Positions 3,448 to 41,095 of a stretch of DNA of 64,000 nt are shown one piece after another. Source of the stretch: an uncultured Lachnospiraceae bacterium (GTDB lineage Bacteria > Bacillota > Clostridia > Lachnospirales > Lachnospiraceae). The notes under the pieces were generated by a model. It searched no databases. It had not been told where the DNA came from and saw nothing but the letters and a program-made list of their open reading frames with translations. Location: positions 1,057 to 65,056 of the forward strand of contig CADAOY010000007.1 in assembly GCA_902789665.1 (NCBI GenBank). The letters are read 5' to 3'. The number at the start of each line of letters is the position of its first letter. Positions within the stretch are counted from its first letter, which is position 1. A program made the translations under genes and the position numbers.

Positions 3448-3467
3448 AAACAAATAGGAGAAAATGT

Positions 3468-3956
3468 ATGAAAAATAATAATAAAGGTTTTTCCTATGTT
3501 GAACTTATATTAGTACTTGCGATTATGTCACTTATGATTGCAATGATAGGTTTATCATATGGTTTAGTCACAAGGAATAATGTTACTAAAGCTGCAGCTA
3601 AAATGGAATCCTTATTTAATACTGCAAGGATTACTTCTCTTAGCAAAGGCTCTGAAGCAGGAGCACTGAATTTTAGAGCAGAAAATGGAATAATTTATTA
3701 TGGCATAGGAAAATATGATGCAGATCCTGATCATAATGAGGTTGAGTGGGTTAAGTTTGCTCAGTCTCCAGTATATGTGACTTTATCTAATAGTGGAGGT
3801 AATGTAGATTTAGGCACATCTGTTGTAACATTTAAGTATAATCCTTCTTCTGGAGCGTTTAAGGCGTGCCCATATAGTTCGCTTATTTTAAGCAATGGAA
3901 GAACTTCGAGTACCCTCGTGTTGTATAGTAATACAGGAAAGTGTGAGGTTAAATAA
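3468..3956 (+). CDS. Prepilin-type protein (FimT/GspH-like minor pilin)
   Basis: KG|FSYVELILVLAIM motif; AGGAG RBS. Confidence 0.85.
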   Translation: MKNNNKGFSYVELILVLAIMSLMIAMIGLSYGLVTRNNVTKAAAKMESLFNTARITSLSKGSEAGALNFRAENGIIYYGIGKYDADPDHNEVEWVKFAQSPVYVTLSNSGGNVDLGTSVVTFKYNPSSGAFKACPYSSLILSNGRTSSTLVLYSNTGKCEVK

Positions 3957-3968
3957 TTAGGAGGCAAT

Positions 3969-5255: not shown

Positions 5256-5270
5256 TTAAACATATTCATA

Positions 5271-5312
5271 AAACAAACAAATCCGTCGGCTTTGGCCGAC
5301 GGATTGTTGTTT
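5271..5312. terminator. Bidirectional intrinsic terminator between convergent genes
   Basis: AATCCGTCGGC-TTTG-GCCGACGGATT with A-rich 5' and T-rich 3' flanks. Confidence 0.85.
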
Positions 5313-5357
5313 ATAGAGATATGTAATTAAATGTGTGGTTATGATATGTGGCTGTTA

Positions 5358-5807
5358 TTAATCCTCAATCATAACCATTTCCATTATATTGTAAGGCAAG
5401 AGGCTGTAGCTGCAGGATTTATATGTGGCTATGGCCCTTTCGTTTTCTGGTTCGACTTCGAGTTTGAATCTGACGATGTCAGGGTAGAGGGATGGGAGAG
5501 TTTTAAAGAATTCTCTGGAGATGCCCTGGCGGCGGTATTCCGGTTTTATGTATAAATCTTCAATCCAGCCGCAGAGTCCGCCGTATTCGGTGGTGAAGCT
5601 CTTGGAAACCATGGCATAGCCGGCAATCTGGTTATCTACCATGAAGACATAGCCATCAAGGTAAGGATTATCGCCTATGCAGGCATCTATATCGTTCTTA
5701 AGTACCTGGTCTGAAGAGGTATGTAAAACAGCAGGGGAGTCGTAAAAGACTCTCATCATGCCCAGGACCTCATCGTAGTGTTCTTTATTCATTCTTACTA
5801 TTTCCAT
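5358..5807 (-). CDS. GNAT family N-acetyltransferase
   Basis: IEDLYIKPEYRRQGIS acetyl-CoA motif A; LEVEPENERAIATY motif B. Confidence 0.9.
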   Translation of the reverse strand: MEIVRMNKEHYDEVLGMMRVFYDSPAVLHTSSDQVLKNDIDACIGDNPYLDGYVFMVDNQIAGYAMVSKSFTTEYGGLCGWIEDLYIKPEYRRQGISREFFKTLPSLYPDIVRFKLEVEPENERAIATYKSCSYSLLPYNIMEMVMIED

Positions 5808-5905
5808 TTTGAACTCCTTGAAATTTTTGTTAAATATTATCTTTTATAATTATAACATAATTGGAATCTATGTTATAATAGTAACGTTGATGTTAAGGAG
5901 AGATA

Positions 5906-7120
5906 ATGACAGATTTAAAATATATACAACTTAAGAAAGGCGAAGGCAGGACCATTAAGGCGGGCGGAGCCTGGATATTTGATAATGAGATTGCCAGGAT
6001 GGCGGATGATATAGAAGATGGCGATATTGTTAAAGTCTATGACTTTGATGAATATCCAATGGGACAGGGTTATATTAATAGAAAATCCAAAATCACCGTC
6101 CGTATGCTTTCAAGAAATATTGATGCTGTGATTGACGAGGCTTTCTTTAAGGAAAGAGTTAAAAGAGCGTGGCAGTATCGTAAGGATAACGTGGATATAT
6201 CATCCTGCAGAGTTATATTTGGTGAGGCTGACTTTCTGCCTGGTATTGTGGTAGATAAGTACGAAGATGTGCTGGTAGTTGAGTCCTTAACTTTAGGAAT
6301 TGATAAATGGAAGATTGTTATTATAGATGCTCTTAAAAATATTATGTCAACTGATGGCATCATGATAAGAGGAGTCTATGAGCGTTCAGATGCAAAAGTA
6401 CGACTTAAAGAGGGACTTGAGAGATATAAGGGATTTATAGGTCCTGAGTTTGATACTGAAGTAATAATTACAGAGAATAATGTTAAATATTATGTGGATG
6501 TAGAGAATGGTCAGAAAACAGGTTTCTTCCTGGATCAGAAATATAACCGCCTTGCAATGCAAAATCTGGTATCTAAAATGGACAAACCGTCCGTACTTGA
6601 CTGTTTTACCCATACAGGTTCTTTTGCCCTTAATACAGGGCTGGCAGGAGCGAGAGAGGTATTAGGTCTTGATGCATCCGAACTTGCCATAGAAGAGGCA
6701 AGAAAGAACGCAGAATTAAATGGTCTTTCTGACAGAGTTCATTTTGAGGTGGCTGACGTACTTGAGTGGCTTCCAAAGAAGGTGGAAGAAGGGGTTAAGT
6801 ATGATGTGGTAATACTTGACCCGCCGGCTTTTACCAAATCAAGGGATACCATTAAGAAGGCAGCCAAGGGATATAGGGAAATTAATGTGTGCGGTATGAA
6901 ACTTGTAAGAAACGGTGGCTATCTGGCTACATGTTCATGCTCACATTTTATGGATAATGATACTTTTATGAGCGTTATAGCGCAGTCTGCAAGGTCTGCT
7001 CATAAGAGACTTAGACAGGTAGAATTCAGGACTCAGTCTGCCGATCATCCGATTCTCTGGTCTGCAGATGAGAGCTATTATCTTAAATTTTATATATTCC
7101 AGGTATGTGAGGAAGAATGA
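5906..7120 (+). CDS. rlmI: RlmI-like class I SAM-dependent rRNA m5C methyltransferase with PUA domain
   Basis: PUA N-terminus, GQKTGFFLDQ, VLDCFTHTGSF, DVVILDPPAF and TCSCSH motifs. Confidence 0.8.
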   Translation: MTDLKYIQLKKGEGRTIKAGGAWIFDNEIARMADDIEDGDIVKVYDFDEYPMGQGYINRKSKITVRMLSRNIDAVIDEAFFKERVKRAWQYRKDNVDISSCRVIFGEADFLPGIVVDKYEDVLVVESLTLGIDKWKIVIIDALKNIMSTDGIMIRGVYERSDAKVRLKEGLERYKGFIGPEFDTEVIITENNVKYYVDVENGQKTGFFLDQKYNRLAMQNLVSKMDKPSVLDCFTHTGSFALNTGLAGAREVLGLDASELAIEEARKNAELNGLSDRVHFEVADVLEWLPKKVEEGVKYDVVILDPPAFTKSRDTIKKAAKGYREINVCGMKLVRNGGYLATCSCSHFMDNDTFMSVIAQSARSAHKRLRQVEFRTQSADHPILWSADESYYLKFYIFQVCEEE

Positions 7121-7124
7121 TATA

Positions 7125-7961
7125 ATGATAAAGTATATTGATAAGACATATGATGAAGAAAGGGCTTTATACGGCTCTGACGGACTGCAGGTAATTAACT
7201 GTAAGTTTGACGGCCCGGCAGACGGCGAGAGCGCTCTCAAGGAGAGTAAGAATATCGAAGTGGATGGATGTTATTGCAATTTAAGATATCCATTCTGGCA
7301 TGACACCAATCTTAAAATTACCAATACCGAAATGACAGACAAATGCAGGGCTGCATTATGGTATTCAGAAAATATTTATATTTCAGATACAAAACTTCAT
7401 GGTATCAAGGCGCTTAGAGAGTGTAAGGATATCGAGATTGTAAACAGCGACATTATATCTCCAGAGTTTGGCTGGTCGGTATCTAATTTCAAAATTTCCG
7501 ACTCCTCAGCTGAATCCGAGTATTTTATGATGCGTTCAGATCATCTTAACTTTGATAATGTTAAGCTTAAGGGTAAATATTCATTTCAGTATATTTCGGA
7601 CTGTATTTTTACCAATTGTAATTTTGATACCAAGGATGCTTTCTGGCATGGAAAGAATATTCTTATTAAGGACAGTATTGTTAAGGGAGAATATCTGGCC
7701 TGGTATTCAGAGAATCTGACTTTTGAGAACTGTACAATTATAGGTACGCAGCCCCTGTGTTACTGTAAAAATCTTAAAATGATTAACTGCCAGATGATTG
7801 AGGCAGACCTTTCTTTTGAAAAATCAGAGGTGGATGCTACGATTCTTAGTGAGGTTATCAGTATTAAGAATCCAAAGAGTGGAAAAATATATGTTCCCGG
7901 CGTTAAGGAAATCATTATGGATGATGAGAATGCAAAGGGTGAGATAATAATTAAAAAATAA
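7125..7961 (+). CDS. DUF3737 family protein
   Basis: EERALY..GESALKE..LRYPFWH..GEYLAWYS..GTQPLCY pattern recognised as DUF3737; start moved to ATG 7125. Confidence 0.8.
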   Translation: MIKYIDKTYDEERALYGSDGLQVINCKFDGPADGESALKESKNIEVDGCYCNLRYPFWHDTNLKITNTEMTDKCRAALWYSENIYISDTKLHGIKALRECKDIEIVNSDIISPEFGWSVSNFKISDSSAESEYFMMRSDHLNFDNVKLKGKYSFQYISDCIFTNCNFDTKDAFWHGKNILIKDSIVKGEYLAWYSENLTFENCTIIGTQPLCYCKNLKMINCQMIEADLSFEKSEVDATILSEVISIKNPKSGKIYVPGVKEIIMDDENAKGEIIIKK

Positions 7962-7980
7962 AGGAAAGAGGTAATGAATT

Positions 7981-8322
7981 ATGCCATGTATTGATTGTAA
8001 AGTTACAGTTGAATTAACAGAAGAAAAGAAGGAGCAGCTTAAGTCACAGTTTGGTAAGGCCATTGGTATCTTAGGTAAGCCAGAGACATATCTGATGGTT
8101 ACTTTATCTGACAAGGCTGACATTTATTTAGGCGGTAATAAACTGACTGAAGGCGCAAGCCTTACAGTAAGTGCGCTTGGTGAGATTTCATCTTTTGACA
8201 GCAATAAGATGACTAATACACTTTGTGACATCATTAAGGAAGTAACAGGTATTCCTCCAAGAGGAGTATATATTTCTTACTGGAGCACCAAGAACTGGGG
8301 CTGGAACGGCCAGAATTTCTAA
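7981..8322 (+). CDS. Phenylpyruvate tautomerase, MIF-like
   Basis: Met-Pro N-terminus (catalytic Pro1), LGKPETYLMV, C-terminal WGWNGQNF. Confidence 0.9.
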   Translation: MPCIDCKVTVELTEEKKEQLKSQFGKAIGILGKPETYLMVTLSDKADIYLGGNKLTEGASLTVSALGEISSFDSNKMTNTLCDIIKEVTGIPPRGVYISYWSTKNWGWNGQNF

Positions 8323-8338
8323 TTAAATAACCATAATG

Positions 8339-8378
8339 AGAGCCTTTGTCTAAATGTATATTTAAACAGGGCTCTTTT
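8339..8378 (+). terminator. Intrinsic terminator
   Basis: Imperfect long hairpin AGAGCC...GGCTCT followed by TTT. Confidence 0.6.
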
Positions 8379-8393
8379 GGATAGGAGAGGGAA

Positions 8394-10619
8394 TTGAAGA
8401 AGAATCTTAAAAGAAATATAAGCTTAATACTTATAATGGCAATGGCAGCGAATCTGGCATTTTTGGGTGGATGTAATAAGCCATCTGAAGAGGCAGTGGA
8501 TGAGAACGTTGTCGGGGAAATCCCGGTTATTGACGTGGAAGATGTAGTGCAAGAAGAAGCAGTAGAAGAAGATATAAAGGAAATCACTGTTTCTGAATGC
8601 GTTCTTCCTGAATATGAATGGCAGAAAGAACTTGTTTTTCCTAATGATGATGGATATGTGGATGATACTCTTGCCATGAATTCAATAGCGGATATTAAAA
8701 CTTATAAAGGTCAGGGCGAGTTGTATGTAACCCTTTCAGAAGATATAGAGTCTTTTAAGATATATATTAATCACGAGAAAGTGAACGTTAATGGTTTAAT
8801 GCCGGGTTGTACTTATAAGATTGATTACTCAGATTATGCCATTACAGGCGCTAACGAGGTACAGGTTTCAGGCATATCACCTAAAGAGGCTACAGTCTCT
8901 GTTTATGCTCCTTTCCCCGTAATTGTGGAAGGTATCCCTGAAGATGTTGGCATGGATTCTGAGTATTTTGAATTAATTAGTGAAATCGTCTCAGAAGATG
9001 TGGAACATGGTTTTCCGTCAGCACAGATGGCGGTAATAAAGGACGGAGTACTTATATATAATAATGCCTGGGGCTATGCCAACAGATATGATGGAATGGA
9101 CGCAGTAACAACAGATACCCTTTATGACCTTGCATCAAATACCAAGATGTATTCGGTAGCCTATGCAATTCAAAGGCTGGTATCTGAAGGGAAACTTACA
9201 ATGGATACCAAAATCTCCGACATCCTTGGAGAAGAATTCTATAACGGAACTGTAGATATCTGCTTTAAAGGTTATGAAGATTATTACAAGAAGGGACAGA
9301 ATGCCAATAGAGAGTGGAAGGCTAATATAACAATCAGGGATGTTATGTCTCATAAGGCAGGATTCCCGGGGGCTCCGGCATATCAGAGACCTATATATGA
9401 TCAGGCTATGATAACTTCAAAGACTGATGTTGAGAATATTCTTTATGCGGGTAGTGACGGTTCATTTGAGACCAGGGAAAATACGTACCGCATTATATGC
9501 AAGACTCCGCTTATGTATAAGCCTGGCGACAAGGTTTTATATACAGATGTTGATTATATGGTTCTGGCTTTCTGTATTGAGAAAATCACCGGCCAGAGAC
9601 TTGATGAATATATGGAAAATGAGTTTTATGGTCCTATGGGACTTGAGCATATCTGCTACAGGCCGCTTGATCATGGCTTTGAAAAAGGCGACTGCGCAGC
9701 AACAGAGCCTTATGGTAACACGAGATCTGGAAGCGAGTATTTTGAAGGAGTCAGGACTGAGACCATTCAGGGCGAAGTACATGATGAGATGGCTTATTAT
9801 ACCATGGCTGGAGTGTCAGGCCATGCTGGATTATTCTCGAATGCTGAAGACCTGGGCAAACTAGCCTCAGTAATGCTTATGGGCGGATATGGTGATCAGA
9901 ACTTCTTTAAGGAAGATGTAATGGACGCCTTTATGGCGCCGGCATCGGATACACTGTCTAACTGGGGCGTTGGCTGGTACAGGGAAGGCGATAACAGGAG
10001 AGAGTATTATTTCGGAGAAATGTCATCGAATGATACTATTGGACATCAGGGCTGGACAGGCACAATTACACTGATTGACCCTGATAATAATCTGGTTATT
10101 GTATATCTTACTAACAAAATAAATACCGAGATCACAAACACCGATTATAACAATAATAAGTTTGACGGTAACTGGTATACATCAGCAACTCTTGGTTTTG
10201 CAACAGAGCTTGTTTATGAAGGAATGAATCCGTCAGATGAAGAGAATGAGGCGATGGATGACCTTTTGTGCGATATGGTAGTTGGTAAGTTTAAACTTGT
10301 GGATAAAGAATGGAACCAGGTTGTGACTTCAAATGTCAACAGAACACCGGTTGATGAGAATCATGCAATAGTTAAGTCGGCTTATGCCATTTTAGAAGTT
10401 ATGGTAAACAGAGTTGATGAGGTTAATAGTAAAGAATCCTATGAGGATGGAAGTTTCAATAAGGATTATTATGATTATGCGGTGACTGTACTTTCGCTTC
10501 TAAAAGAAGGAATGGACTTAAATGAGATGAAAAAGTTATATAATGAGTCGCCGACTGCAGCATATTATTTTAAAGAGCAGGGTTATGACTGGGCATCGGA
10601 GATAACTACGGAAGAATAA
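8394..10619 (+). CDS. Lipoprotein serine hydrolase of the beta-lactamase fold, PBP4B (YfeW)/AmiE-like
   Basis: TTG start; lipobox LGGC; DLASNTKMY (SxxK), YTD, GHAGLFS and GHQGWTGT motifs. Confidence 0.8.
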   Translation: MKKNLKRNISLILIMAMAANLAFLGGCNKPSEEAVDENVVGEIPVIDVEDVVQEEAVEEDIKEITVSECVLPEYEWQKELVFPNDDGYVDDTLAMNSIADIKTYKGQGELYVTLSEDIESFKIYINHEKVNVNGLMPGCTYKIDYSDYAITGANEVQVSGISPKEATVSVYAPFPVIVEGIPEDVGMDSEYFELISEIVSEDVEHGFPSAQMAVIKDGVLIYNNAWGYANRYDGMDAVTTDTLYDLASNTKMYSVAYAIQRLVSEGKLTMDTKISDILGEEFYNGTVDICFKGYEDYYKKGQNANREWKANITIRDVMSHKAGFPGAPAYQRPIYDQAMITSKTDVENILYAGSDGSFETRENTYRIICKTPLMYKPGDKVLYTDVDYMVLAFCIEKITGQRLDEYMENEFYGPMGLEHICYRPLDHGFEKGDCAATEPYGNTRSGSEYFEGVRTETIQGEVHDEMAYYTMAGVSGHAGLFSNAEDLGKLASVMLMGGYGDQNFFKEDVMDAFMAPASDTLSNWGVGWYREGDNRREYYFGEMSSNDTIGHQGWTGTITLIDPDNNLVIVYLTNKINTEITNTDYNNNKFDGNWYTSATLGFATELVYEGMNPSDEENEAMDDLLCDMVVGKFKLVDKEWNQVVTSNVNRTPVDENHAIVKSAYAILEVMVNRVDEVNSKESYEDGSFNKDYYDYAVTVLSLLKEGMDLNEMKKLYNESPTAAYYFKEQGYDWASEITTEE

Positions 10620-10627
10620 GGTTTTTG

Positions 10628-10656
10628 TTTACCATTAAATGAATATTTGATATAAT
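10628..10656 (+). promoter_or_regulatory. Sigma-A promoter of the diguanylate cyclase gene
   Basis: TTTACC-17 bp-TATAAT with TG extension. Confidence 0.6.
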
Positions 10657-10692
10657 AAAAGTGTGTTGTTTTTTGTGTAAGGGTAAATTTAT

Positions 10693-12120
10693 ATGTCAGA
10701 TAAAAGGGAACAGGTGAACAGAGTTAAGAATCCTCTTCAACGGACCATATTACTTGGCTCCATTGTCTTTATTTCTCTGCTTTGTTTAGTTTTGTTTATT
10801 CTATTTAATATCGTTTTCTCCAAGGCTTTATATCAAAGATATAATACCCAGATGTCGGATGTGCTTCAGTATGTATATGATCAGATTGATGCTGATGATA
10901 TGCAGTATTGTATTGATAATACAATTGCTGATGCCAATTATGAAGAGTTTCAGTTATTCCTTCATAATGTTGTTGATAATCTGGGAGTTTATTATGTCTA
11001 TATTGTTGTACCAAATGAGGATAATACCCAGATTCTGCATGTGGTTTCAGCAACGAGTAACGAAGCTGTGGAAGATGCCAAGTATGATATGCCGATTAAG
11101 GCTGAGATGGACTATCCTGAGGATATTACAAGAAGGTATCTGGAGGCCTTTAAGAAGCCGGATGTATCTTTCTTTGAAAGTAATTCTGAAAGAGGTGTAT
11201 TTTATACAGCCTGCAAGCCTGTAGTTAATTCAAACGGTCAGACCATTGCTTTGGTCTGTGGTGATATAGATATCAGTATTATTGAGGATATTACAAGGGA
11301 ATATACAATTCAGAGTGTGCTGGCATCCCTGATTATTGGCTTTATCTTTGTTGTTTTTCTGCAGATATGGTTTAGAAGTACCATTATTAAGCCGGTTAAG
11401 GCACTGGAGGAAAGCGCCAGGAATTTTGCCACATCGAGTCAGGATGAGATGGATTTAAGAGAGCTTGATTTTGCAATGCCGGAGATTAAGAGTCATAATG
11501 AGATTTATTCTCTGGGTGAGTCCATTGTAATCATGTCCGAGAATATGAAGCATTATGTTTTGGATATCAATGATGCTGAGGCCAGAGCGGTAGGTGCAAA
11601 GAAGCAGGCAGAGAGTATGTCTTATCTTGCTTATAAGGATTCGCTTACTCAGGTTAAGAATAAGACGGCTTTTGAGAATACCTGCGAAGAGATTAATATG
11701 GAGATTAAAGAAGGCATGGCTGAGTTCTCCGTGCTGATGGTGGATCTTAATAATCTTAAGAAAATTAATGATACATATGGTCACCAGAAGGGTGATATCT
11801 ATATAACAGGTTCATGTAAGATTATTTGTAATGTATTTGCGCACTGCCCGGTATTTCGTGTGGGCGGCGATGAATTCGTGGCGATACTTAAGAATGAGTC
11901 TTATGATGACAGGGATGCGCTATTTGTTAAACTGCTGGATGAATTTAAGAAGTCATTTAAGGATGAGTCGAAGGAGCCTTGGGAGAGGTTTTTTGCGGCT
12001 GCCGGTATGGCGGATTATATAATGGGTAAAGATAAGAGTATTGATGCTGTATTCCAAAGGGCAGACAATATGATGTATAAGAATAAGGAACAGCTTAAGA
12101 AGGCTTATAATGTTGATTAA
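10693..12120 (+). CDS. Membrane-bound diguanylate cyclase (sensor-HAMP-GGDEF)
   Basis: Two TMs, HAMP (IIKPVKAL..NEIYSL), DSLTQVKN, DLNNLKKINDTYGH, intact GGDEF. Confidence 0.9.
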   Translation: MSDKREQVNRVKNPLQRTILLGSIVFISLLCLVLFILFNIVFSKALYQRYNTQMSDVLQYVYDQIDADDMQYCIDNTIADANYEEFQLFLHNVVDNLGVYYVYIVVPNEDNTQILHVVSATSNEAVEDAKYDMPIKAEMDYPEDITRRYLEAFKKPDVSFFESNSERGVFYTACKPVVNSNGQTIALVCGDIDISIIEDITREYTIQSVLASLIIGFIFVVFLQIWFRSTIIKPVKALEESARNFATSSQDEMDLRELDFAMPEIKSHNEIYSLGESIVIMSENMKHYVLDINDAEARAVGAKKQAESMSYLAYKDSLTQVKNKTAFENTCEEINMEIKEGMAEFSVLMVDLNNLKKINDTYGHQKGDIYITGSCKIICNVFAHCPVFRVGGDEFVAILKNESYDDRDALFVKLLDEFKKSFKDESKEPWERFFAAAGMADYIMGKDKSIDAVFQRADNMMYKNKEQLKKAYNVD

Positions 12121-28737: not shown

Positions 28738-31700
28738 TTATTTGTATAATTCAACCAATTTCTGTAAGTGGTCATATCTTGCCTTAGCAGCGTCCTCTGA
28801 TGCAGCGAATAACTTCTCTGCTCTTTCAGGGAATGGCTTGATAAGACGTGTATAACGAGCTTCGTTATTAAGGAACTCCTGATATGTACCATCACCTTCC
28901 TTAGATGTAAGAGTGAATGGATTCTGACCAGCTGCCTTCTTAGCAGGATCAAATGTGAAGAGGTTCCAGTAACCAGCCTTAACAGCTTTCTTCATTTCAT
29001 CCTGGCAGTGGTTCATACCACCCTTAGCGATACCGTGAAGTTCGCAAGGAGCGTAACCAATGATGAGTGAAGGACCGTTGTATGCTTCAGCCTCAGCGAT
29101 AGCCTTAACAGCCTGTGCCGGGTTAGCACCAAGTGCGATCTGAGCAACATATACATAACCGTAGCTCATAGCGATCTCTGCAAGAGACTTCTTGCTGATT
29201 TCCTTACCAGCTGCAGCGAACTGACAAACTTCACCGATATTAGAAGCCTTGGATGCCTGTCCACCAGTATTTGAATACATTTCTGTATCGAATACCATGA
29301 TGTTTACGTTCTCGCCAGAAGCGATTACGTGATCAAGACCACCAAATCCGATATCGTATGCCCATCCGTCACCACCGAAGATCCAAACAGATTTCTTTGA
29401 TAAGTAATCTTTCTTAGCAAGAACTTCTTTAGCAAGAGCATTATCTGATTTCTCAAGTTCTGCAATAAGCTTCTCAGCGTCAGCTGCGTTAGCCTTTGTG
29501 TCATCCTTTGTAGCAAGGAATGCATCAATAGCACCAGCAAGTTCAGCTGAAGCAGAACCCTTGAGTTCTTCTAACTTAGCGATTGCCTGGTCTCTGATAA
29601 CTTTCTGTCCTAAATACATACCGAAGCCGTGCTCAGCATTATCTTCGAACAATGAGTTAGACCATGCAGGACCCTTCTTGGAATCCTTGTTAACAGTATA
29701 TGGTGATGTAGCTGCAGGGCCACCCCAGATAGAAGAGCATCCTGTTGCATTTGAGATATACATATGCTCACCAAATAACTGTGTGATTAATCTAGCATAA
29801 GATGTTTCTGCACAACCTGCACATGATCCTGAGAACTCAAGAAGTGGCTGATTGTACTGTGAATTGATAGGTGTAATACCCTTATCAAGAGCAGGCTTTA
29901 ATTCCTTGCGGCCTACGTTAGCAACTAAGTAATCGAATACTGGCTGCTCAGCTGCCTGTGATTCCTGAGGAACCATCTTAAGAGCTTCATTAGGCTTAGG
30001 ACAAACAGTAACACATTCGCCACATCCCATACAATCAAGTGGTGATACAGTCATTGTATACTTCATTGTTGCATCATTAGCATGCTTTGAATCTGCAAGT
30101 TTGATATTTGAAGGAGCTGCCTTAACTTCTTCATCTGAAAGAATGAATGGACGGATAGTAGCATGTGAACATACGAATGCACAGCTGTTACACTGAGCAC
30201 ATGCTTCAGGGTTCCATTCAGGAACCATAACTGCAGTTCCTCTCTTCTCGTAAGCAGAAGCACCTGTTTCGAACTGACCATCTGCGATATCCTTGAATGC
30301 AGATACTGGTAAGCTGTAACCATCCATTAAGCCGATAGGATCAAGAAGCTTGTTAACCATATCAACTGTAGCAGGTCTTCCTTCTCTCTTGATTTCTTTC
30401 TTTTCTTCTGTAGCATTAGCCCAATCAGCAGGAACTTCTACTTTGTGAATAGCATCTACACCGGCATCAATTGCCTTGTAGTTCATTTCAACAACAGCGT
30501 CACCCTTCTTGGAGTATGACTTCTTAGCTGCCTGCTTCATGTAATCAACAGCTTCCTCGATTGGCATAACGTTAGCAAGTTTGAAGAATGCTGACTGTAA
30601 GATAGTATTTGTTCTCTTACCCATACCAATTTCGATAGCCTTGTCAATAGCGTTAATTGTATATAACTGAATGTTGTTCTTAGCGATATACTGCTTAGCT
30701 TCAGCTGGCATATGCTGATTAAGTTCTTCATCAGACCACTGGCAGTTAATCATGAAGATTCCGCCTGGCTTAACATCCTGAACCATCTTGTAGCCTTTAA
30801 CAACATAAGATGGGTTATGGCATGCTACGAAGTCAGCCTGATTGATGTAGTATGGGCTCTTGATTGGCTTGTCACCAAAACGAAGATGGGAGATAGTGAT
30901 ACCACCTGTCTTCTTAGAGTCATACTGGAAGTATGCCTGGATATATTTGTCTGTGTGGTCACCAATAATCTTTGTAGAGTTCTTGTTAGCACCAACAGTA
31001 CCGTCACCACCCAAGCCCCAGAACTTGCACTCTACTGTACCCTTAGCGGATGTAATAGGAGCTGGCTTAACTTCTGGTAAGCTTAAGTTTGTAACGTCAT
31101 CAACGATACCGATTGTAAATCTCTTCTTAGGAGCATCTTTCTCAAGTTCTGTATAAATAGCGAAGATAGATGAAGGACATGTATCCTTGCTACCTAAACC
31201 GTAACGACCTGCTGAAACGAGGATGTCATTAAGTCCTGCTTCACGAAGAGTAGTAGCGATATCAAGGTATAATGGCTCACCAAGTGAACCTGGCTCTTTA
31301 GTTCTGTCTAATACAGCAATCTTCTTAACTGTCTTAGGAAGAACTTTAAGGAATGCGTTAGAAACCCATGGACGATATAATCTTACTTTAATAAGACCAA
31401 CCTTCTGACCTGCAGCTGTTAAGTAATCAATTACTTCTTCAGCTACGTCACATACAGAACCCATGGCAACGATTACTCTGTCTGCATCAGCAGCGCCATA
31501 GTAATTGAAGAGGTCATAATCTGTACCGAGCTTCTCGTTAATCTTCTTCATGTATTTCTCTACAACAGCTGGAAGAGCATCGTAAACTGAGTTACAAGCT
31601 TCTCTGTGCTGGAAGAATACGTCATCATTTTCATGTGAGCCTCTCATTGCTGGATGCTCTGGATTAAGTGCATGCTGTCTGAATGCTTCAACTGCATCCA

Positions 31701-32289
31701 TGTTGCACATTTCTTTAAGGTCTTCATAGTCCCATAATTCGATCTTCTGGATCTCATGAGATGTACGGAAACCATCGAAGAAGTTAAGGAATGGAACCTT
31801 TCCTTCAATAGCTGCAAGGTGAGCAACAGGGCTTAAGTCCATAACTTCCTGTGGATTGGACTCAGCGAGCATAGCGAAACCTGTCTGACGGCAAGCGTAT
31901 ACGTCACTGTGATCACCAAAGATATTAAGTGACTGTGTAGCAACGCATCTTGCGGATACATCGAATACACAAGGTAATTGTTCAGCAGCAATCTTGTACA
32001 TGTTAGGGATCATAAGAAGAAGACCCTGAGATGCTGTGAATGTTGTTGTGATAGCACCAGCTGCAAGAGAACCATGAACGGTACCAGCTGCGCCAGCTTC
32101 TGATTGCATTTCGGTTACCTTAACTGTGTTACCGAAAATGTTTTTTCTACCTTCTGCAGACCACTGGTCAACATAGTCGGCCATAGGGCTTGAAGGTGTG
32201 ATAGGATAGATACCTGCAACTTCTGTGAAAGCATAAGCTACATGAGCTGCGGCGGTATTACCATCCATTGACTGTTTGATTCTAGCCAT
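28738..32289 (-). CDS. nifJ: Pyruvate:ferredoxin (flavodoxin) oxidoreductase, homodimeric type
   Basis: MDGNTAAA, YPITPSS, QSEAGAAG, GLGGDGTVGANK, two CxxCxxC-CP, FSGSCAGCAET, GGDGWAYDIG; start ATG 32289 behind AAAGGAGG. Confidence 0.97.
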   Translation of the reverse strand: MARIKQSMDGNTAAAHVAYAFTEVAGIYPITPSSPMADYVDQWSAEGRKNIFGNTVKVTEMQSEAGAAGTVHGSLAAGAITTTFTASQGLLLMIPNMYKIAAEQLPCVFDVSARCVATQSLNIFGDHSDVYACRQTGFAMLAESNPQEVMDLSPVAHLAAIEGKVPFLNFFDGFRTSHEIQKIELWDYEDLKEMCNMDAVEAFRQHALNPEHPAMRGSHENDDVFFQHREACNSVYDALPAVVEKYMKKINEKLGTDYDLFNYYGAADADRVIVAMGSVCDVAEEVIDYLTAAGQKVGLIKVRLYRPWVSNAFLKVLPKTVKKIAVLDRTKEPGSLGEPLYLDIATTLREAGLNDILVSAGRYGLGSKDTCPSSIFAIYTELEKDAPKKRFTIGIVDDVTNLSLPEVKPAPITSAKGTVECKFWGLGGDGTVGANKNSTKIIGDHTDKYIQAYFQYDSKKTGGITISHLRFGDKPIKSPYYINQADFVACHNPSYVVKGYKMVQDVKPGGIFMINCQWSDEELNQHMPAEAKQYIAKNNIQLYTINAIDKAIEIGMGKRTNTILQSAFFKLANVMPIEEAVDYMKQAAKKSYSKKGDAVVEMNYKAIDAGVDAIHKVEVPADWANATEEKKEIKREGRPATVDMVNKLLDPIGLMDGYSLPVSAFKDIADGQFETGASAYEKRGTAVMVPEWNPEACAQCNSCAFVCSHATIRPFILSDEEVKAAPSNIKLADSKHANDATMKYTMTVSPLDCMGCGECVTVCPKPNEALKMVPQESQAAEQPVFDYLVANVGRKELKPALDKGITPINSQYNQPLLEFSGSCAGCAETSYARLITQLFGEHMYISNATGCSSIWGGPAATSPYTVNKDSKKGPAWSNSLFEDNAEHGFGMYLGQKVIRDQAIAKLEELKGSASAELAGAIDAFLATKDDTKANAADAEKLIAELEKSDNALAKEVLAKKDYLSKKSVWIFGGDGWAYDIGFGGLDHVIASGENVNIMVFDTEMYSNTGGQASKASNIGEVCQFAAAGKEISKKSLAEIAMSYGYVYVAQIALGANPAQAVKAIAEAEAYNGPSLIIGYAPCELHGIAKGGMNHCQDEMKKAVKAGYWNLFTFDPAKKAAGQNPFTLTSKEGDGTYQEFLNNEARYTRLIKPFPERAEKLFAASEDAAKARYDHLQKLVELYK

Positions 32290-32407: not shown

Positions 32408-32437
32408 AAAATATAACCCACTAATTTAGTGGGTTAT
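32408..32437 (-). terminator. Intrinsic terminator of the hydrogenase-regulatory operon
   Basis: ATAACCCACTA-ATT-TAGTGGGTTAT directly after the PHP stop; TTTT on the minus strand. Confidence 0.75.
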
Positions 32438-33177
32438 TAAGCATTAAAATATAGTTTATGTTCATTTCCTGTAAGCGCTTGCAAAATCGCCGCCACCGAA
32501 TTCTCCTCAGCCTCAATCACATTGACTGCCTCATGTATCAGCCACAGATAGTGCGCATCCGAATCATTGATGGCATTGCATTCTTTAAGATAAGGATTGA
32601 TTTTGTACATTTGTTCAAGATTGTCCTTATTAGCAATCTCAAAACATGTGAACCTGGAACCTTCCGGAACGAAGCCAAGCTGAGATGTGACAGAATCAGA
32701 AGGCTTATCTATATGAGCCGGAATCATAATTCCATTAAAAGAGTGCACCAGGTCATAACTTTCAGTAAAAGATATATCCGTAGCCGCCAATAGGAGGTGA
32801 TCCACAGTTCCAATCTGCTCATCTTTTTCATTCATGATAATCTGGTCGCCGAATCTTAAAGTATCATTCGGAATAGGTAACTGATGCTCCTCAACATAGG
32901 CATCAAATCTCATTGCATCTTCTAATGTATAAAAAAGACAAACCACATGAACTTCTTCAGAGGTGGTAAGTTCCATCCCAGGAATTACCGTAATTCCATA
33001 CTCGGCTGCAATTTTAGTGACAGCGGGGCAGTTTTTGCACGTGTTGTGATCAGTAAGTGCAATAACATTTAACTCTTTTAAAGCGCACATTCCCACAATG
33101 TTCCCGGGCGTGTTGTCATTATCGCCGCAGGGCGAGAGGCAGGAGTGCATATGTAAATCATAATAGAATTTACTCAT
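32437..33177 (-). CDS. PHP-domain metal-dependent phosphoesterase
   Basis: DLHMHS, ALTDHN, PGMELTTSEEVH, PAHID, SDAH. Confidence 0.9.
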   Translation of the reverse strand: MSKFYYDLHMHSCLSPCGDNDNTPGNIVGMCALKELNVIALTDHNTCKNCPAVTKIAAEYGITVIPGMELTTSEEVHVVCLFYTLEDAMRFDAYVEEHQLPIPNDTLRFGDQIIMNEKDEQIGTVDHLLLAATDISFTESYDLVHSFNGIMIPAHIDKPSDSVTSQLGFVPEGSRFTCFEIANKDNLEQMYKINPYLKECNAINDSDAHYLWLIHEAVNVIEAEENSVAAILQALTGNEHKLYFNA

Positions 33178-33183
33178 TATGTC

Positions 33184-33513
33184 TTACCTTAAAGAATCAA
33201 TTAATTTTGCTGCATCATAAATAGGAAGTTCTGTGGTGAATACAGCCACATCTTCGGAAGCCGCCTTGGCCTTAAGGGTATCGTCCATGGTTACGCCTTC
33301 AGCCAGCACGATGCAGGATACATCAGTTAAAGTTGCAACTGCAAGAGTGTTGACATTACTCATAACTGTAACCCAGCATGAGCCTGAAGGAGCCTTGCCC
33401 ATTGCGATTGACAAAAGGTCGCAGCAGAAGAGTTTGTCAACATCCTTATCAAGTGATACTGATGGTGTCAAAAGTGTAAAATTCCCGTCTTTACTAATAT
33501 CAGATACTTTCAT
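33184..33513 (-). CDS. DRTGG-domain protein
   Basis: CCDLLSIAM..WVTVMSNVNTLAVA..IVLAEG..TELPIYD pattern. Confidence 0.8.
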   Translation of the reverse strand: MKVSDISKDGNFTLLTPSVSLDKDVDKLFCCDLLSIAMGKAPSGSCWVTVMSNVNTLAVATLTDVSCIVLAEGVTMDDTLKAKAASEDVAVFTTELPIYDAAKLIDSLR

Positions 33514-33532
33514 TTATCCAAACCTCCAAAAT

Positions 33533-34831
33533 TTAATCGCCGCTGATGATGGAAATATCATCAGATAATTTATTGATGTATTCTCTTAAAATATGTATAC
33601 AGTCTCGTTTCTTTGCAACGCCTCTTACGATGTCTTCAGCAAGGGCCTTACAGGTAGGAGCGCCGCAACAACCACAGTCAAGACCCGGGAACTCTTCGCA
33701 AAGGGCATCAATCTGTGCCATCTTCGCCATGCTTTCCTTAAGATTGTCTGCAAGTTCAAATACAGGCTCATATTCAACGTCGCTGGTCCAGGTTGTCTTA
33801 TCGTCATCAACCTCATCGTGCGGAGCAGTAACAGGAAGATATTTCCTGATATGCTGTAATTTGGCCTTGGCAGCAAAAGGATTCTCGACTGTCATTACGC
33901 CGCCTACGCAGCCGCCGTTACAAGCATTAAGTTCTATAAATTCCAAATCCTTATTGAACTTGTCATCCTCTAAATCTTCCAAAACAGAAATGACATTGCC
34001 GATACCATCAGCTGCCACATAGGAATCGGAGAGAAGGCCTGCAGCCTCGCCGCCGGTGATACCCCAGGAGATGCCGATTTTGCCAGATCTTACAAGGTCT
34101 TCAGGATTAGCGGCAACCTCTGTCATTGCACTGATTAAGGCAGGATAGATATCCTTGATTGCAAGAACATGGTCGATGTCGCTCTTTTCATATCCTATAG
34201 GATTCTTCGCAGCCGTAACCTTGGATGGACAAGGAGATAAGAAGAAAATACCTATTTCCTCGCTCTTTAATCCGGTCTCATCCATTGCAATCTGTCTTGC
34301 AAGCTTTGCCGCGAGTTCAGCCGGCGTAATAAGTGGAAGAAGATTATCCACAAGATTAGGAAATCTCACCTGCACAAGCCTTACAACAGTAGGACATGCG
34401 GTACTTATGACAGGCCACTTGTCACGGTTTTCGGCAATATATTCTCTTGATTTCTCGGAAATGATTTCTGCCGCTGCAGATACTTCGAATACATCATCAA
34501 AACCAAGTTTCTTAATGCCGGTAAGAATGATATTTACATCATCAAGATGATTAACCTGGGCATAAAGAGACGGAGCCGGAAGAGCAACTGTATACTTATA
34601 CTGCTTGATCGCATCAATAAAATCTCTTTTGGCTTTCTTGGCATGATGAGGGCAGATTCTGATACACTCACCACAATCAATACATTTGTTTTTTGTTATA
34701 ACCGCTTTGTTGTTTCTTACTCTGATTGCCTGGGTAGGACAGTGCTTGATGCAGTTGGTACAGCCCTTGCACTGATTCTCCAGAAGGTAAACAGAGTTAT
34801 CATATGAATTATCCAAAATTGTAACCCCCAA
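33533..34831 (-). CDS. Atypical (putative sensory, group D/C-like) [FeFe]-hydrogenase
   Basis: N-terminal 2x[4Fe-4S]; H-cluster motifs STACP, SPCPSK, ELNACNGGCVGG; C-terminal PGLDCGCCGAPTC FeS motif. Confidence 0.85.
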   Translation of the reverse strand: MGVTILDNSYDNSVYLLENQCKGCTNCIKHCPTQAIRVRNNKAVITKNKCIDCGECIRICPHHAKKAKRDFIDAIKQYKYTVALPAPSLYAQVNHLDDVNIILTGIKKLGFDDVFEVSAAAEIISEKSREYIAENRDKWPVISTACPTVVRLVQVRFPNLVDNLLPLITPAELAAKLARQIAMDETGLKSEEIGIFFLSPCPSKVTAAKNPIGYEKSDIDHVLAIKDIYPALISAMTEVAANPEDLVRSGKIGISWGITGGEAAGLLSDSYVAADGIGNVISVLEDLEDDKFNKDLEFIELNACNGGCVGGVMTVENPFAAKAKLQHIRKYLPVTAPHDEVDDDKTTWTSDVEYEPVFELADNLKESMAKMAQIDALCEEFPGLDCGCCGAPTCKALAEDIVRGVAKKRDCIHILREYINKLSDDISIISGD

Positions 34832-34850
34832 TAAAGATAATTAGTATGTT

Positions 34851-35273
34851 TTATAAATTGATAGTCATTACAACTGTAGTTCCAACACCAATCTCAGTTG
34901 AAATATCGATGGTGTCAGAATTCTTCTTCATATTAGGAAGACCCATACCTGCGCCAAATCCCAGATTACGCACATTGTCAGGAGCAGTAGAGAAGCCGGC
35001 CTGCATAGCCTTGTCGATATCAGGAATGCCTGGACCTCTGTCTGCCAGGGTCATTGTGATTTGTTCCTCACTGATTGTAACGGTAATCTCGCCGCCATAT
35101 GCATGAATAACCATGTTGATCTCACCTTCATAAAGGGCGATGGCAACTCTTCTTATTACATCAGGTGATACCCCGAGCTGCTTGAGTTTCTTCTTAACAT
35201 CAGAAGAAGCTTCCCCCGCTCTGGTAAAATCCTCGTTGCTTACTTGATATTTTAATTCCATAAGATTAGGCAT
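34851..35273 (-). CDS. RsbT-like anti-sigma-factor-type Ser/Thr kinase (HATPase_c)
   Basis: EGEINMVIHA (N box), DRGPGIPDI (G1), GFST, GFGAGMGLP (G2); no H-box. Confidence 0.85.
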   Translation of the reverse strand: MPNLMELKYQVSNEDFTRAGEASSDVKKKLKQLGVSPDVIRRVAIALYEGEINMVIHAYGGEITVTISEEQITMTLADRGPGIPDIDKAMQAGFSTAPDNVRNLGFGAGMGLPNMKKNSDTIDISTEIGVGTTVVMTINL

Positions 35274-35619
35274 CCATTTTACCTCCTCTTAATCCGCTTT
35301 CATATAAAAGACCGCAGGCAGAAAACATTCTGTGACCTGTGGAAAGAATAGGAAGATTATTCTCCTTAGCCATTTCAATCATGGCTTCATCAGGCTTCTT
35401 GCCCCTTACGAAAATAATGCAAACGATATCCATCATATCAGCTGTTCTGATAACCTGTGGGTTGCAAAGTCCGGTAAGAAGAGCGCAGCTTGTCTTGGCA
35501 AAGGCAAGAACATCGCTCATCATGTCTGAACCGCAGGCTGTGCGAACTTCTACATCCAGCAAATCCTCGCCGGTTATAACTTCGCAGTCTAAAAGATTCT
35601 TTATTTCACCAACTGTCAT
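35266..35619 (-). CDS. DRTGG-domain protein
   Basis: ACGSDMMSDVLA..LLTGL.NPQVIRTA..IIFVRGK; start moved to ATG 35619 behind GGAGG. Confidence 0.85.
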   Translation of the reverse strand: MTVGEIKNLLDCEVITGEDLLDVEVRTACGSDMMSDVLAFAKTSCALLTGLCNPQVIRTADMMDIVCIIFVRGKKPDEAMIEMAKENNLPILSTGHRMFSACGLLYESGLRGGKMDA

Positions 35620-35689
35620 TTGTTCCTCCATAAAAAATAACTGTAAAATCCCCGCCAAACTCTTTTTTGGCATACAAAAATACATATTA

Positions 35690-35717
35690 ATTATATCACA
35701 AGAGCGGTGCTTTTCAA
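35690..35717 (-). promoter_or_regulatory. Sigma-A promoter of the leftward regulatory operon
   Basis: Minus strand TTGAAA-16 bp-TATAAT with TG extension. Confidence 0.6.
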
Positions 35718-35859: not shown

Positions 35860-35949
35860 GGTCGAAGGTTTGACTAGATTGTTGCAAGGTGCTTGCAACT
35901 TTTAGTATATATTTATTTGTTAAAAAAATATCAAGGAGGTTTTTTAAGG

Positions 35950-39337: not shown

Positions 39338-41095
39338 ATGGAAACCGTTAAAGTTAAAATAAATGGTGTTGAAGTAGATGCACCTAAAGGCTCTTCCATA
39401 TTAGCAGCAGCAAAGCTTGCCGGAATCGATATTCCTACTTTATGTTACTTAAAGGAAATCAATGAAATCGGCGCTTGTCGTATCTGTATGGTAGAAGCTA
39501 ATGAAGGCAGAGGCCCTAGACTGGTAGCTGCTTGTGTATATCCTGTTTCAGAGGGTATGGAAGTAAGCACAAATTCACCAAAGGTATTGGAAAGCAGAAA
39601 GAAAACACTTCAGCTTATCTTATCTGACCATGATAAGAAATGTTTATCATGTGTACGTAGTGGTAAGTGTGAACTTCAGAAGCTTTGCAAAGACTATGGC
39701 GTAGATGATGAGAATAAGTACGAAGGCGTTGTAAACGAATTCGAACTTGATGAATCTGCAGCACATATGGTAAGAGATAACAACAAGTGTATCAATTGCC
39801 GTCGTTGTATCGCAGTTTGTGAGAAGAATCAGGGTATTGGCGTTATCGGCGCTAATAACAGAGGTTTCATCACAGAGATTTCTTCTCCATTTGGTATGGG
39901 ACTTGCTGAGACAGCCTGCGTATGCTGTGGTCAGTGTATCGCTGCTTGTCCTACAGGTGCTATTTATGAGAAGTCTGATATTGATAAGATCTTAGCAGCT
40001 ATTGCAGATCCTGAGAAGCATGTTGTTGTTCAGACAGCTCCTGCTGTTAGAGCAGCACTTGGTGAAGCATTTGGTCTTCCAATCGGAACAGGTGTTGAAG
40101 GCAAGATGGTTGCAGCTCTTAGAAGAATCGGATTCGAGAAAGTATTCGATACAGATTTTGCAGCTGACGTAACAATTATGGAAGAAGCTCATGAGCTCTT
40201 AGACAGAGTTAAAAATGGTGGTGTACTTCCAATGATTACATCTTGTTCACCAGGATGGATTAAATATTGTGAGCATTACTATCCAGATCAGCTTGAGCAC
40301 TTATCATCATGTAAGTCACCTCAGCAGATGTTTGGTGCAATTCTTAAAACATATTACGCACAGAAGATGGGCTGGGATCCTAAGTCAATCGTATCTGTCA
40401 GCGTAATGCCATGTACAGCTAAGAAGTTTGAAATTGGTCGTGAAGATCAGAGCGCTGCTGGTGTTCCAGATCTTGATTACACAATGACAACAAGAGAACT
40501 TGCAAGATTAATTGAGAGATGTTCAATTAACTTCCTTGCTCTTCCAGATGAGACATTTGATGATCCTATGGGTGAGAGTACAGGTGCTGCAGTTATCTTC
40601 GGTGCAACCGGTGGTGTTATGGAAGCAGCTCTCAGAACAGCTGTATGGAAACTTACAGGCGAGACAAATGACAGCCCAATCGAATTCAAGGAAGTTCGTG
40701 GTATGGAAGGCATCAAGGAAGCTACATACAAAGTTAACGATCTTGAAGTTAAGGTTGCTATCGCTTCAGGTCTTGCTAATGCCAAGGTTATCATGGATAA
40801 GATCAGAGCCGGCGAAGCTGATTACGTATTCGTTGAAGTTATGGCTTGCCCAGGCGGCTGTATCAACGGTGGTGGACAGCCACAGGTACCTGCACACATC
40901 CGCAATTTTGTTGACTATCGTTCACTTCGTGCAGGTGCATTATACAAATATGATGAGACTATGCCTGTTCGTAAGTCACATGAGAACAAATCTGTACTTA
41001 AGTTATATGAAGAGTTCTTCGGTGAACCAAACAGCCATAAAGCACATGAAGTTTTACATACAACCTATGTAAAGAGAAAAATTCATGAGATTTAA
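39338..41095 (+). CDS. [FeFe]-hydrogenase catalytic subunit (HndD/HydA, group A3 type)
   Basis: N-terminal [2Fe-2S], His-ligated and 2x[4Fe-4S] motifs; P1 TSCSPGW, P2 MPCTAKKFE, P3 EVMACPGGCINGGG. Confidence 0.95.
   Translation: METVKVKINGVEVDAPKGSSILAAAKLAGIDIPTLCYLKEINEIGACRICMVEANEGRGPRLVAACVYPVSEGMEVSTNSPKVLESRKKTLQLILSDHDKKCLSCVRSGKCELQKLCKDYGVDDENKYEGVVNEFELDESAAHMVRDNNKCINCRRCIAVCEKNQGIGVIGANNRGFITEISSPFGMGLAETACVCCGQCIAACPTGAIYEKSDIDKILAAIADPEKHVVVQTAPAVRAALGEAFGLPIGTGVEGKMVAALRRIGFEKVFDTDFAADVTIMEEAHELLDRVKNGGVLPMITSCSPGWIKYCEHYYPDQLEHLSSCKSPQQMFGAILKTYYAQKMGWDPKSIVSVSVMPCTAKKFEIGREDQSAAGVPDLDYTMTTRELARLIERCSINFLALPDETFDDPMGESTGAAVIFGATGGVMEAALRTAVWKLTGETNDSPIEFKEVRGMEGIKEATYKVNDLEVKVAIASGLANAKVIMDKIRAGEADYVFVEVMACPGGCINGGGQPQVPAHIRNFVDYRSLRAGALYKYDETMPVRKSHENKSVLKLYEEFFGEPNSHKAHEVLHTTYVKRKIHEI

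Follow-up and report, generated by a model that had tools for sequence, protein, structure and literature searches.

How does a sensory hydrogenase hand on what it has sensed? The question is raised by a cluster of five genes in the stretch of DNA studied here, 64,000 nucleotides of contig CADAOY010000007.1 from an uncultured Lachnospiraceae bacterium (below, and always at its full length, the window). The cluster codes for HydS, a putative sensory [FeFe] hydrogenase, together with a kinase of the SpoIIAB type, two small proteins related to the DRTGG family (DRTGG-1 and DRTGG-2), and a phosphoesterase of the PHP family. It is divergent from an operon for a catalytic hydrogenase of the HydABC type. 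As late as April 2026, the interaction partners of such group D enzymes were described as still to be identified (PMC13104023).

An earlier note on this DNA, made from the sequence alone, had taken the five genes for an H2-sensing partner-switch module. The reading to which we give somewhat better than even chances is a different one: the five genes, together with an ATPase encoded in the neighboring operon (the orphan HATPase), would constitute an H2-responsive, phosphate-based signaling cassette of HydS, dedicated to the adjacent HydABC enzyme. The genes themselves are not new, and the set is widespread; what is offered here is a narrowing of the mechanism to a few proteins and residues. The genes concerned are the following:

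35266 to 35619, minus strand: DRTGG-1, 117 amino acids; PF07085
34851 to 35273, minus strand: SpoIIAB-like GHKL serine-kinase-type ATPase, 140 amino acids; PF13581, PF02518
33533 to 34831, minus strand: HydS, group D (M2e) putative sensory [FeFe] hydrogenase, 432 amino acids
33184 to 33513, minus strand: DRTGG-2, paralogue of DRTGG-1, 109 amino acids
32437 to 33177, minus strand: PHP-family metal-dependent phosphoesterase, 246 amino acids; PF02811
36476 to 37039, plus strand: orphan GHKL ATPase (Tte0891 family), in the hyd operon; PF02518/PF13589
35950 to 41095, plus strand: HydABC-type operon (NuoE-like, orphan HATPase, Trx-like 2Fe-2S, NuoF-like, HydA)

The five minus-strand genes run from 35619 to 32437 with intergenic spacings of -8, 19, 19, and 6 nucleotides. 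The tight linkage described in the earlier note, and the divergence from the catalytic operon on the plus strand, are both real.

The Sensory-Type Hydrogenase

HydS comprises two Fer4 motifs (residues 15-64), the Fe_hyd_lg_C domain, and a C-terminal PF04060 domain (residues 382-412) with a four-cysteine site of the form C-x2-C-x4-C-x16-C. No PAS or other output domain was matched by Pfam in the protein, as the earlier note had said. The catalytic motifs were read from alignments to the HydA structures 8A6T and 7P5H and to 79 orthologues, and the positions of reference are given in CpI numbering. In the STACP motif, Ala145 stands at the position of the proton-relay Cys299 in 79 of 79 relatives. 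In SPCPSK, Ser199 occupies the Met353 position (Ser or Thr in the family), Lys358 is retained (Lys204 of HydS, present in 78 of 79 relatives), and Ala is found at the Glu361 position. In ELNACNGGC, it is Asn302 that takes the place of Met497, a site divided in the family between Leu (40) and Asn (36). The ligands of the H-cluster, Cys146, 201, 304, and 308, are kept in all 79. A family-wide pattern thus stands behind the observation, already made for this one protein, that the H-cluster cysteines and the P2 lysine are kept while the proton-transfer cysteine and the methionines are replaced.

Because group D (M2e) has been described in print by altered relay and methionine positions, a C-terminal four-cysteine site, and the lack of a PAS domain, the assignment of HydS to this sensory-type group is supported by the motif and domain criteria of PMC8163306. 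The marks were described for TamHydS, in which Cys299 is not conserved, Met353 is changed to Ser, and Met497 to Leu; this enzyme turns over H2 at a low rate, and its gene has a histidine-kinase-like ATPase as neighbor (PMC8163306). Group D as a whole was placed among the sensory enzymes owing to adjacent kinases and bifurcating hydrogenases (PMC3561251). The earlier note, which spoke of a sensory-type enzyme with a signaling route still to be worked out, agrees with these marks and with the search for partners mentioned above. The relatives of HydS number more than 8000.

A side observation concerns the C-terminal domain. The PF04060 domain of HydS (window 33597-33689) belongs to the same Pfam family as the N-terminal Fe-S domain of RnfB (9644-10459 in locus L091, described below), and the HydS domain and RnfB both occur beside this cassette. 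As an idea only, the PF04060 domain could be a docking site for the cassette proteins.

A Conserved Unit Linked to HydABC

Do the five genes belong together? A genome scan seeded on the hydrogenase, with genes mapped by tblastn, gave 80 loci that span Lachnospiraceae, Acutalibacteraceae, Christensenellales, Acetivibrionales, Thermoclostridium, and further groups. In about 75 of them, across several orders of Clostridia, the genes follow the order DRTGG-1, kinase, HydS, DRTGG-2, PHP. Within 8 kb of the module, about 24 of the 80 loci have the set NuoE-HATPase-Trx-NuoF-HydA, in divergent, co-directional, or interleaved arrangement; in loci L034 and L069 the five genes are inserted between NuoE and the orphan HATPase, i.e., inside the hyd operon. 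C. phytofermentans ISDg has a divergent layout identical to that of the window. A near-identical locus (99%) is present in the Lachnospiraceae metagenome-assembled genome UBA4338. By gene order and linkage, it is a supported conclusion that the five genes form one conserved unit linked to HydABC, and the statement that similar gene sets accompany clostridial hyd operons holds with these counts.

As the earlier note had stated for the window, no STAS protein, PP2C, or sigma factor is found in the cluster (Pfam), and none of the three is among the recurrent neighbors of the 80 loci. A conserved transcription factor beside the cassette was also considered and rejected: no DNA-binding protein recurs in the 80 loci. 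The neighbors that do recur are lineage-specific housekeeping genes, namely serA/serC, pyrK/pyrD/pyrE, and those for phosphoglycerate mutase, LysM, SPOR, and DUF1858 proteins.

The analysis did point to one further member. In a sample of 300 genomes drawn evenly from the class, the DRTGG-1 profile was matched in 152, the group D hydrogenase in 152 (nearly the same ones), and the profile of the orphan HATPase in 158. A total of 147 genomes have both DRTGG-1 and the orphan HATPase and 137 have neither, with 5 genomes that have only the module and 11 that have only the HATPase (Fisher p 1e-64). The orphan HATPase is counted as part of the cassette because of this near-perfect co-occurrence. It is a protein of 187 amino acids whose N, G1, and G2 boxes are invariant in 19 orthologues, and its gene lies directly 3' of PHP in L034, L069, and L091. 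It corresponds to Tte0891, listed as a hypothetical protein within the native operon and separate from the four enzyme proteins HydA-D (PMC4694547). From these data the orphan HATPase appears to belong with the cassette as its sixth member, outside 32437-35619. The module of the earlier note is therefore confirmed as a conserved unit, and is incomplete at five genes. The probable target of the cassette is the HydABC-type operon.

The Kinase and the DRTGG Proteins

The earlier note had called the kinase RsbT-like, a label that has to be given up. Its best named relative is SpoIIAB (PDB 1TIL, E 5e-10, full length), the match to RsbW is much weaker, and nothing specific to RsbT was found. The scores are 65 bits for TIGR01925, below the cut-off, and 48 bits for PF13581, and the NCBIfam equivalog cut-offs are missed. 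In 79 orthologues, conservation is at least 90% in the N box (E-x-E-I-N-x-V-I-H), the G1 box (D-x-G-P-G-I), and the G2 box (G-F-G-A-G-M-G-L-P-N), and the protein has the features of a GHKL serine kinase of the SpoIIAB/RsbW/RsbT type.

As for the small proteins, DRTGG-1 matches PF07085 with 31.5 bits (cut-off 25.2). DRTGG-2 remains under the threshold with 20.9 bits, and its comparison with DRTGG-1 by hhalign (probability 99.1%, E 9e-19) identifies the two as paralogues. Each carries a D-x-x-S motif, DMMS in one and DLLS in the other, as the earlier note had seen. The two residues, Asp32 and Ser35, are invariant in 63 orthologues of DRTGG-1 and 63 of DRTGG-2, align with each other between the paralogues, and are absent from the archaeal DRTGG protein AF1212. 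In the AlphaFold (AF2) model of DRTGG-1 (pLDDT 91), Ser35 lies at the N-terminus of a helix formed by residues 34-40. Because the motif is invariant in both paralogues and stands at a helix N-terminus, sequence and model together make Ser35 a legitimate candidate phospho-acceptor.

Could a DRTGG protein then be a STAS protein in disguise? This was ruled out by the fold search. With Foldseek, the model of DRTGG-1 gave TM values of 0.84 to AF1212 (2IOJ), 0.74 to the DRTGG domain of CBS-pyrophosphatase, and 0.67 to the N-domain of HPr kinase, and none of the 50 matches listed was a STAS protein.

The two paralogues differ in the company that their genes keep. The DRTGG-1 and kinase genes overlap by 8 nucleotides here, and the gap between them is at most 10 nucleotides in 90% of 61 loci. 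For DRTGG-2 and PHP it is at most 10 nucleotides in 74% of 58 loci, mostly with a 4-nucleotide overlap. Judged from this spacing, DRTGG-1 is translationally coupled to the kinase, and DRTGG-2 to PHP. A search of the literature on DRTGG proteins with hydrogenases, or on the locus tags of the accessory genes, returned nothing functional.

The PHP Phosphoesterase

The PHP protein retains the metal ligands of its family. The ligand motifs HxH, DHN, E, H, PAH, and SDAH are kept; the metal ligands D7, H9, D43, H44, E69, H77, H155, D207, and H209 are invariant in 62 orthologues, and H11 is at least 90% conserved. Its AF2 model has a pLDDT of 95.5, and the nearest folds are those of EndoQ, RNase AM, BAD_1165, TM0559, and a pAp-phosphatase-type enzyme. 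A kinship with the PHP tyrosine phosphatases YwqE/CpsB was ruled out: their structure 3QY6 ranked 42nd against the model (E 0.03, TM 0.39), and a sequence match was absent. The phosphatase of the earlier note is thus upheld as far as its metal site is concerned, and not in its closest relatives.

Beside the first metal-binding motif, the protein has a conserved stretch D-L-H-x-H-S-C-L-S-P-C (residues 7-17; window 33127-33159) with two cysteines, and a third conserved cysteine is found at residue 80. These cysteines may hint at redox or metal sensitivity.

Variant Cassettes

The exceptions to the common gene order are instructive because they show which parts can be separated. In L076 (2050-9311) and L080, the genes are CheW, kinase, and HydS, and an OmpR-type regulator and a histidine kinase of dCache-HAMP-GAF-PAS architecture are encoded upstream; CheW occupies the position of DRTGG-1, and DRTGG-1, DRTGG-2, and PHP are all absent. 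In L079 (3922-11320), the kinase and HydS genes follow the same kind of two-component pair, and after them comes a fusion of a hydrogenase with an MCP signaling domain. These variants suggest that the kinase-HydS pair is a sensory core able to use other adaptors, and the CheW, the MCP-fused hydrogenase, and the two-component genes beside such pairs support a sensory role.

The opposite case, a cassette without its hydrogenase, is found in L091 (G295:C11:3500-15500). Here DRTGG-1, kinase, DRTGG-2, PHP, and the orphan HATPase (2947-10459, rnf genes included) lie directly upstream of rnfCDGEAB; this is the single rnf-linked locus verified. The group D hydrogenase of genome G295 stands alone, 450 kb off (L094 7446-8690), between genes for a dicarboxylate symporter and a decarboxylase. 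It follows that the set of DRTGG proteins, kinase, PHP, and HATPase can probably work without a hydrogenase, and that its target would be an NADH/ferredoxin enzyme, not necessarily a hydrogenase. It also follows that the cassette has the hydrogenase as an input rather than as its core.

In a third arrangement, L092 (G040:C1:1299000-1313000; 3684-11379), the PHP gene is missing, and the set NuoE, orphan HATPase, Trx, NuoF, and HydA comes immediately after DRTGG-2. The residues of the D-x-x-S motif are retained in both the G295 and the G040 cassette.

Proposed Mechanism and Its Alternatives

How might such a cassette work? HydS would bind H2 at an H-cluster whose proton relay is disabled, with slow turnover and a conformational change, a step that has been shown for TamHydS in the literature. 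HydS would be in complex with the SpoIIAB-type kinase and with PHP, each of which would come together with a DRTGG paralogue of its own. The kinase would write a phosphate mark and PHP would erase it, the best candidate for the acceptor being Ser35 of the DRTGG proteins. The output would then most likely reach the HydABC enzyme by protein contact, with the orphan HATPase as intermediary, or else go to an unlinked regulator. An output at the level of proteins is favored because no DNA-binding protein travels with the cassette and because the cassette can sit inside the operon.

Several facts weigh against this scheme. The C-terminal cluster in TamHydS does not become reduced by H2 (PMC13104023). 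The co-occurrence of the HATPase with the module is inseparable from its co-occurrence with this HydABC subtype. The fold of the small proteins, as modeled, is DRTGG and not STAS, and the D-x-x-S at the helix start could be a structural capping motif. We know of no DRTGG protein that is a kinase substrate. In fold, the PHP model comes nearest to phosphoesterases that act on nucleic acids and nucleotides, and protein phosphatases are more distant. Finally, L092 without PHP and L091 without HydS mean that the erase step and the H2 input are both optional.

Which protein, then, carries the phosphate? The earlier note had proposed that the kinase phosphorylates the DRTGG Ser, that PHP removes the phosphate, and that HydS gates the cycle; in such a partner switch, Ser35 of both DRTGG proteins would be the acceptor and DRTGG would stand in for STAS. 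Asp32 and Ser35, being invariant in both paralogues and not general features of DRTGG proteins, speak for it, as does the position of Ser35, since the phospho-serine of SpoIIAA likewise lies at a helix N-terminus; the DRTGG-1 gene lies ahead of the kinase gene and overlaps it, an arrangement like that of spoIIAA and spoIIAB; DRTGG-1, DRTGG-2, and PHP are jointly missing from the CheW/two-component variants; and the Asp and Ser persist in the rnf-linked cassette. Against it stand the fold, which is not that of STAS, the dissimilarity of PHP to known PHP protein phosphatases, the coupling of DRTGG-2 to PHP and not to the kinase, and the fact that the Asp and Ser are kept even where the cassette has no PHP. 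A switch on Ser35 is plausible, and we regard it as possible rather than probable. About equally likely is that the DRTGG proteins are not substrates at all: they would serve as subunits for regulation or docking, DRTGG-1 on the side of the kinase and DRTGG-2 on that of PHP, possibly as a heterodimer, which attach both enzymes to HydS or, in other cassettes, to another sensor, while the phosphate goes to a different protein such as the orphan HATPase or an NADH-binding subunit of the HydB/RnfC type. The translational coupling of each DRTGG gene to one enzyme gene is what such subunits would lead one to expect, and in L076 and L080 it is CheW, a classical adaptor, that holds the place of DRTGG-1. 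Moreover, in CBS-pyrophosphatase the DRTGG domain has a regulatory or dimerization role, it is similar to the N-domain of HPr kinase, and the L091 cassette, orphan HATPase included, heads rnfCDGEAB without HydS. This tentative explanation has its own difficulties: docking alone leaves the identical invariant Asp and Ser of both paralogues unexplained, the model names no target residue, and the rnf case rests on a single verified locus.

The relatives of PHP raise another thought, namely, that it cleaves a nucleotide or a small phosphoester, that the GHKL proteins are ATPases or clamps, and that the cassette handles a nucleotide signal tied to redox state. RNase AM, the pAp-phosphatase-type enzymes (2YB1, 3O0F), and EndoQ are indeed the nearest structures, and in the pyrophosphatase (3L2B/3L31) DRTGG stands beside CBS domains in a regulatory region that binds nucleotides. 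The TM values to the nucleotide enzymes reach just 0.5-0.67, the kinase clearly belongs to the protein kinases of the SpoIIAB type, and the cassette holds no cyclase, synthetase, or known nucleotide-binding effector, so that this explanation is quite unlikely. Still less probable, to the point of being remote, is that no signaling by HydS takes place, either because HydS is a slow catalyst and the small proteins serve in assembly, repair, or electron delivery, or because the kinase is an anti-sigma factor for an unlinked sigma factor. The low turnover of H2 by TamHydS (PMC8163306) agrees with the former, and the STAS proteins and two other HATPase_c_2 genes found elsewhere in the genome with the latter. 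Neither fits with the lack of any recurrent sigma factor or STAS gene near the cassette in 80 loci, with the kinase-HydS pairs that occur with CheW, MCP, and two-component genes, or with cassettes that exist without HydS.

The signaling cassette of HydS is thus the reading that we retain. A broader version can be formulated: proteins of the DRTGG fold would be an unrecognized class of phospho-acceptors or switches which, with the kinase, the orphan GHKL ATPase, and PHP in the role of a phosphoserine phosphatase, form a post-translational switch on HydABC or Rnf in about half of the Clostridia, HydS being an exchangeable H2 input. We look on it as rather doubtful.

Transcription Signals and Neighboring Genes

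Two features flank the five genes:

35690 to 35717, minus strand: promoter-like site of the five-gene operon, TTGAAA-16-TGnTATAAT, 11 of 12 matches; consensus match only
32413 to 32437, minus strand: terminator-like hairpin 3' of PHP, 11-bp stem with a weak T tail; upstream of the PFOR promoter

The first is the top sigma-70-like site of the region and is located in the divergent intergenic space. The DRTGG-1 start is the ATG at 35619, with GGAGG in front; the mechanical open reading frame extends to 35685. The earlier note had given the genes one promoter and one terminator. Both sites are present, and the total counts of promoter-like and terminator-like sites in the region are not above shuffle expectation; the pair is consistent with a single transcription unit and is no proof of it.

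Directly downstream of the cassette, on the same strand, lies the gene for pyruvate:ferredoxin oxidoreductase (PFOR; 28738-32289), with its own promoter TTTACA-17-TATAAT at 32373-32345 and its own ribosome-binding site. PFOR is found in the same position in L002, L008, and L009, which makes a ferredoxin source and a ferredoxin sink neighbors in this Lachnospiraceae lineage.

A Rex operator in the divergent promoter region was also considered. Rex-operator-like sequences lie at 35684-35701 (3 mismatches) and 35917-35934 (2 mismatches); they are weak and give no real evidence. The candidate was dropped, as matches occur only at 2-3 mismatches and the window-wide count is near that of shuffles (32 vs 22 ± 4.5 expected; 2 of 100 shuffles reach 32).

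The catalytic HydA of the neighboring operon (39338-41095; NF040763, 882 bits) has TSCSPGW where the textbook motif is TSCCPGW, which presumably, in CpI numbering, places a Ser at the position of the cluster ligand Cys300. A defect or sequence error was rejected as the cause, since the motif is a trait of the whole HydABC subtype: it is present in 13 of 13 linked HydA proteins (those of the window and of L002, L008, L013, L014, L032, L059, L060, L065, L070, L074, L075, and L078).

Significance

Why should this cassette attract interest? Group D sensory [FeFe] hydrogenases are under intensive spectroscopic study, and the analysis names likely signaling partners for one of them: four partner proteins and the operon-embedded ATPase. 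About half of the Clostridia sampled have the cassette, among them many metagenome-assembled genomes from gut, rumen, and digester, and the neighboring enzyme sets the H2 release of fermenters, with effects on syntrophy, the formation of methane, and the yields of biofuel. A direct action of the switch on HydABC or Rnf, if it exists, would represent a new mode of control for electron-bifurcating enzymes.

Comparison with Known Systems

The locus is a typical member of the group D/M2e neighborhood, as represented by the TTE0887, Cthe_0335, and Cphy_3798 loci. TamHydS of Thermoanaerobacter mathranii has the same plan as the HydS of the window, with two N-terminal [4Fe-4S] clusters, the H-domain, a C-terminal four-cysteine site, and no PAS; Cys299 is likewise replaced, and Ser likewise stands at the Met353 position. 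The two differ at the Met497 position, with Leu in TamHydS and Asn here, a choice about evenly divided in the family.

Group C (M2f) enzymes, such as TmHydS, the HydS of R. albus, and HfsB, also have an altered proton relay and a C-terminal four-cysteine cluster, and as in the window, Ser/Thr kinase genes and hydrogenase operons lie nearby (PMC5707799). They carry a fused PAS domain, whereas the cassette has no PAS and has DRTGG and PHP proteins instead. The hfsABCD genes of Thermoanaerobacterium were considered as a model and set aside as uninformative, this being a group C (PAS) system in which hfsD is treated as a catalytic hydrogenase.

The fold of DRTGG-1 is that of the CBS-pyrophosphatase (3L2B/3L31), of AF1212 (2IOJ), and of the N-domain of HPr kinase/phosphorylase. 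Unlike the domains of the pyrophosphatase and the HPr kinase, the DRTGG proteins of the cassette are stand-alone proteins in a signaling operon.

The comparison that comes first to mind is with the partner switches (SpoIIAA/SpoIIAB/SpoIIE; RsbV/RsbW/RsbU; RsbR-S-T). These, too, have a small kinase of the SpoIIAB type whose gene overlaps a small upstream gene; here, the product of the upstream gene has an invariant Ser at a helix N-terminus, and a phosphoesterase is encoded in the same operon. The cassette departs from them in that it has neither a STAS fold nor a PP2C, and no sigma factor or other output. With these parts missing, it stands outside the partner-switch family, and the name of partner-switch module proposed in the earlier note does not apply. 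It also has something that they do not: its small proteins are a pair of paralogues, with the gene of one coupled to that of the kinase and the gene of the other to that of the phosphoesterase. In its way of working, the cassette may nevertheless be similar to a partner switch.

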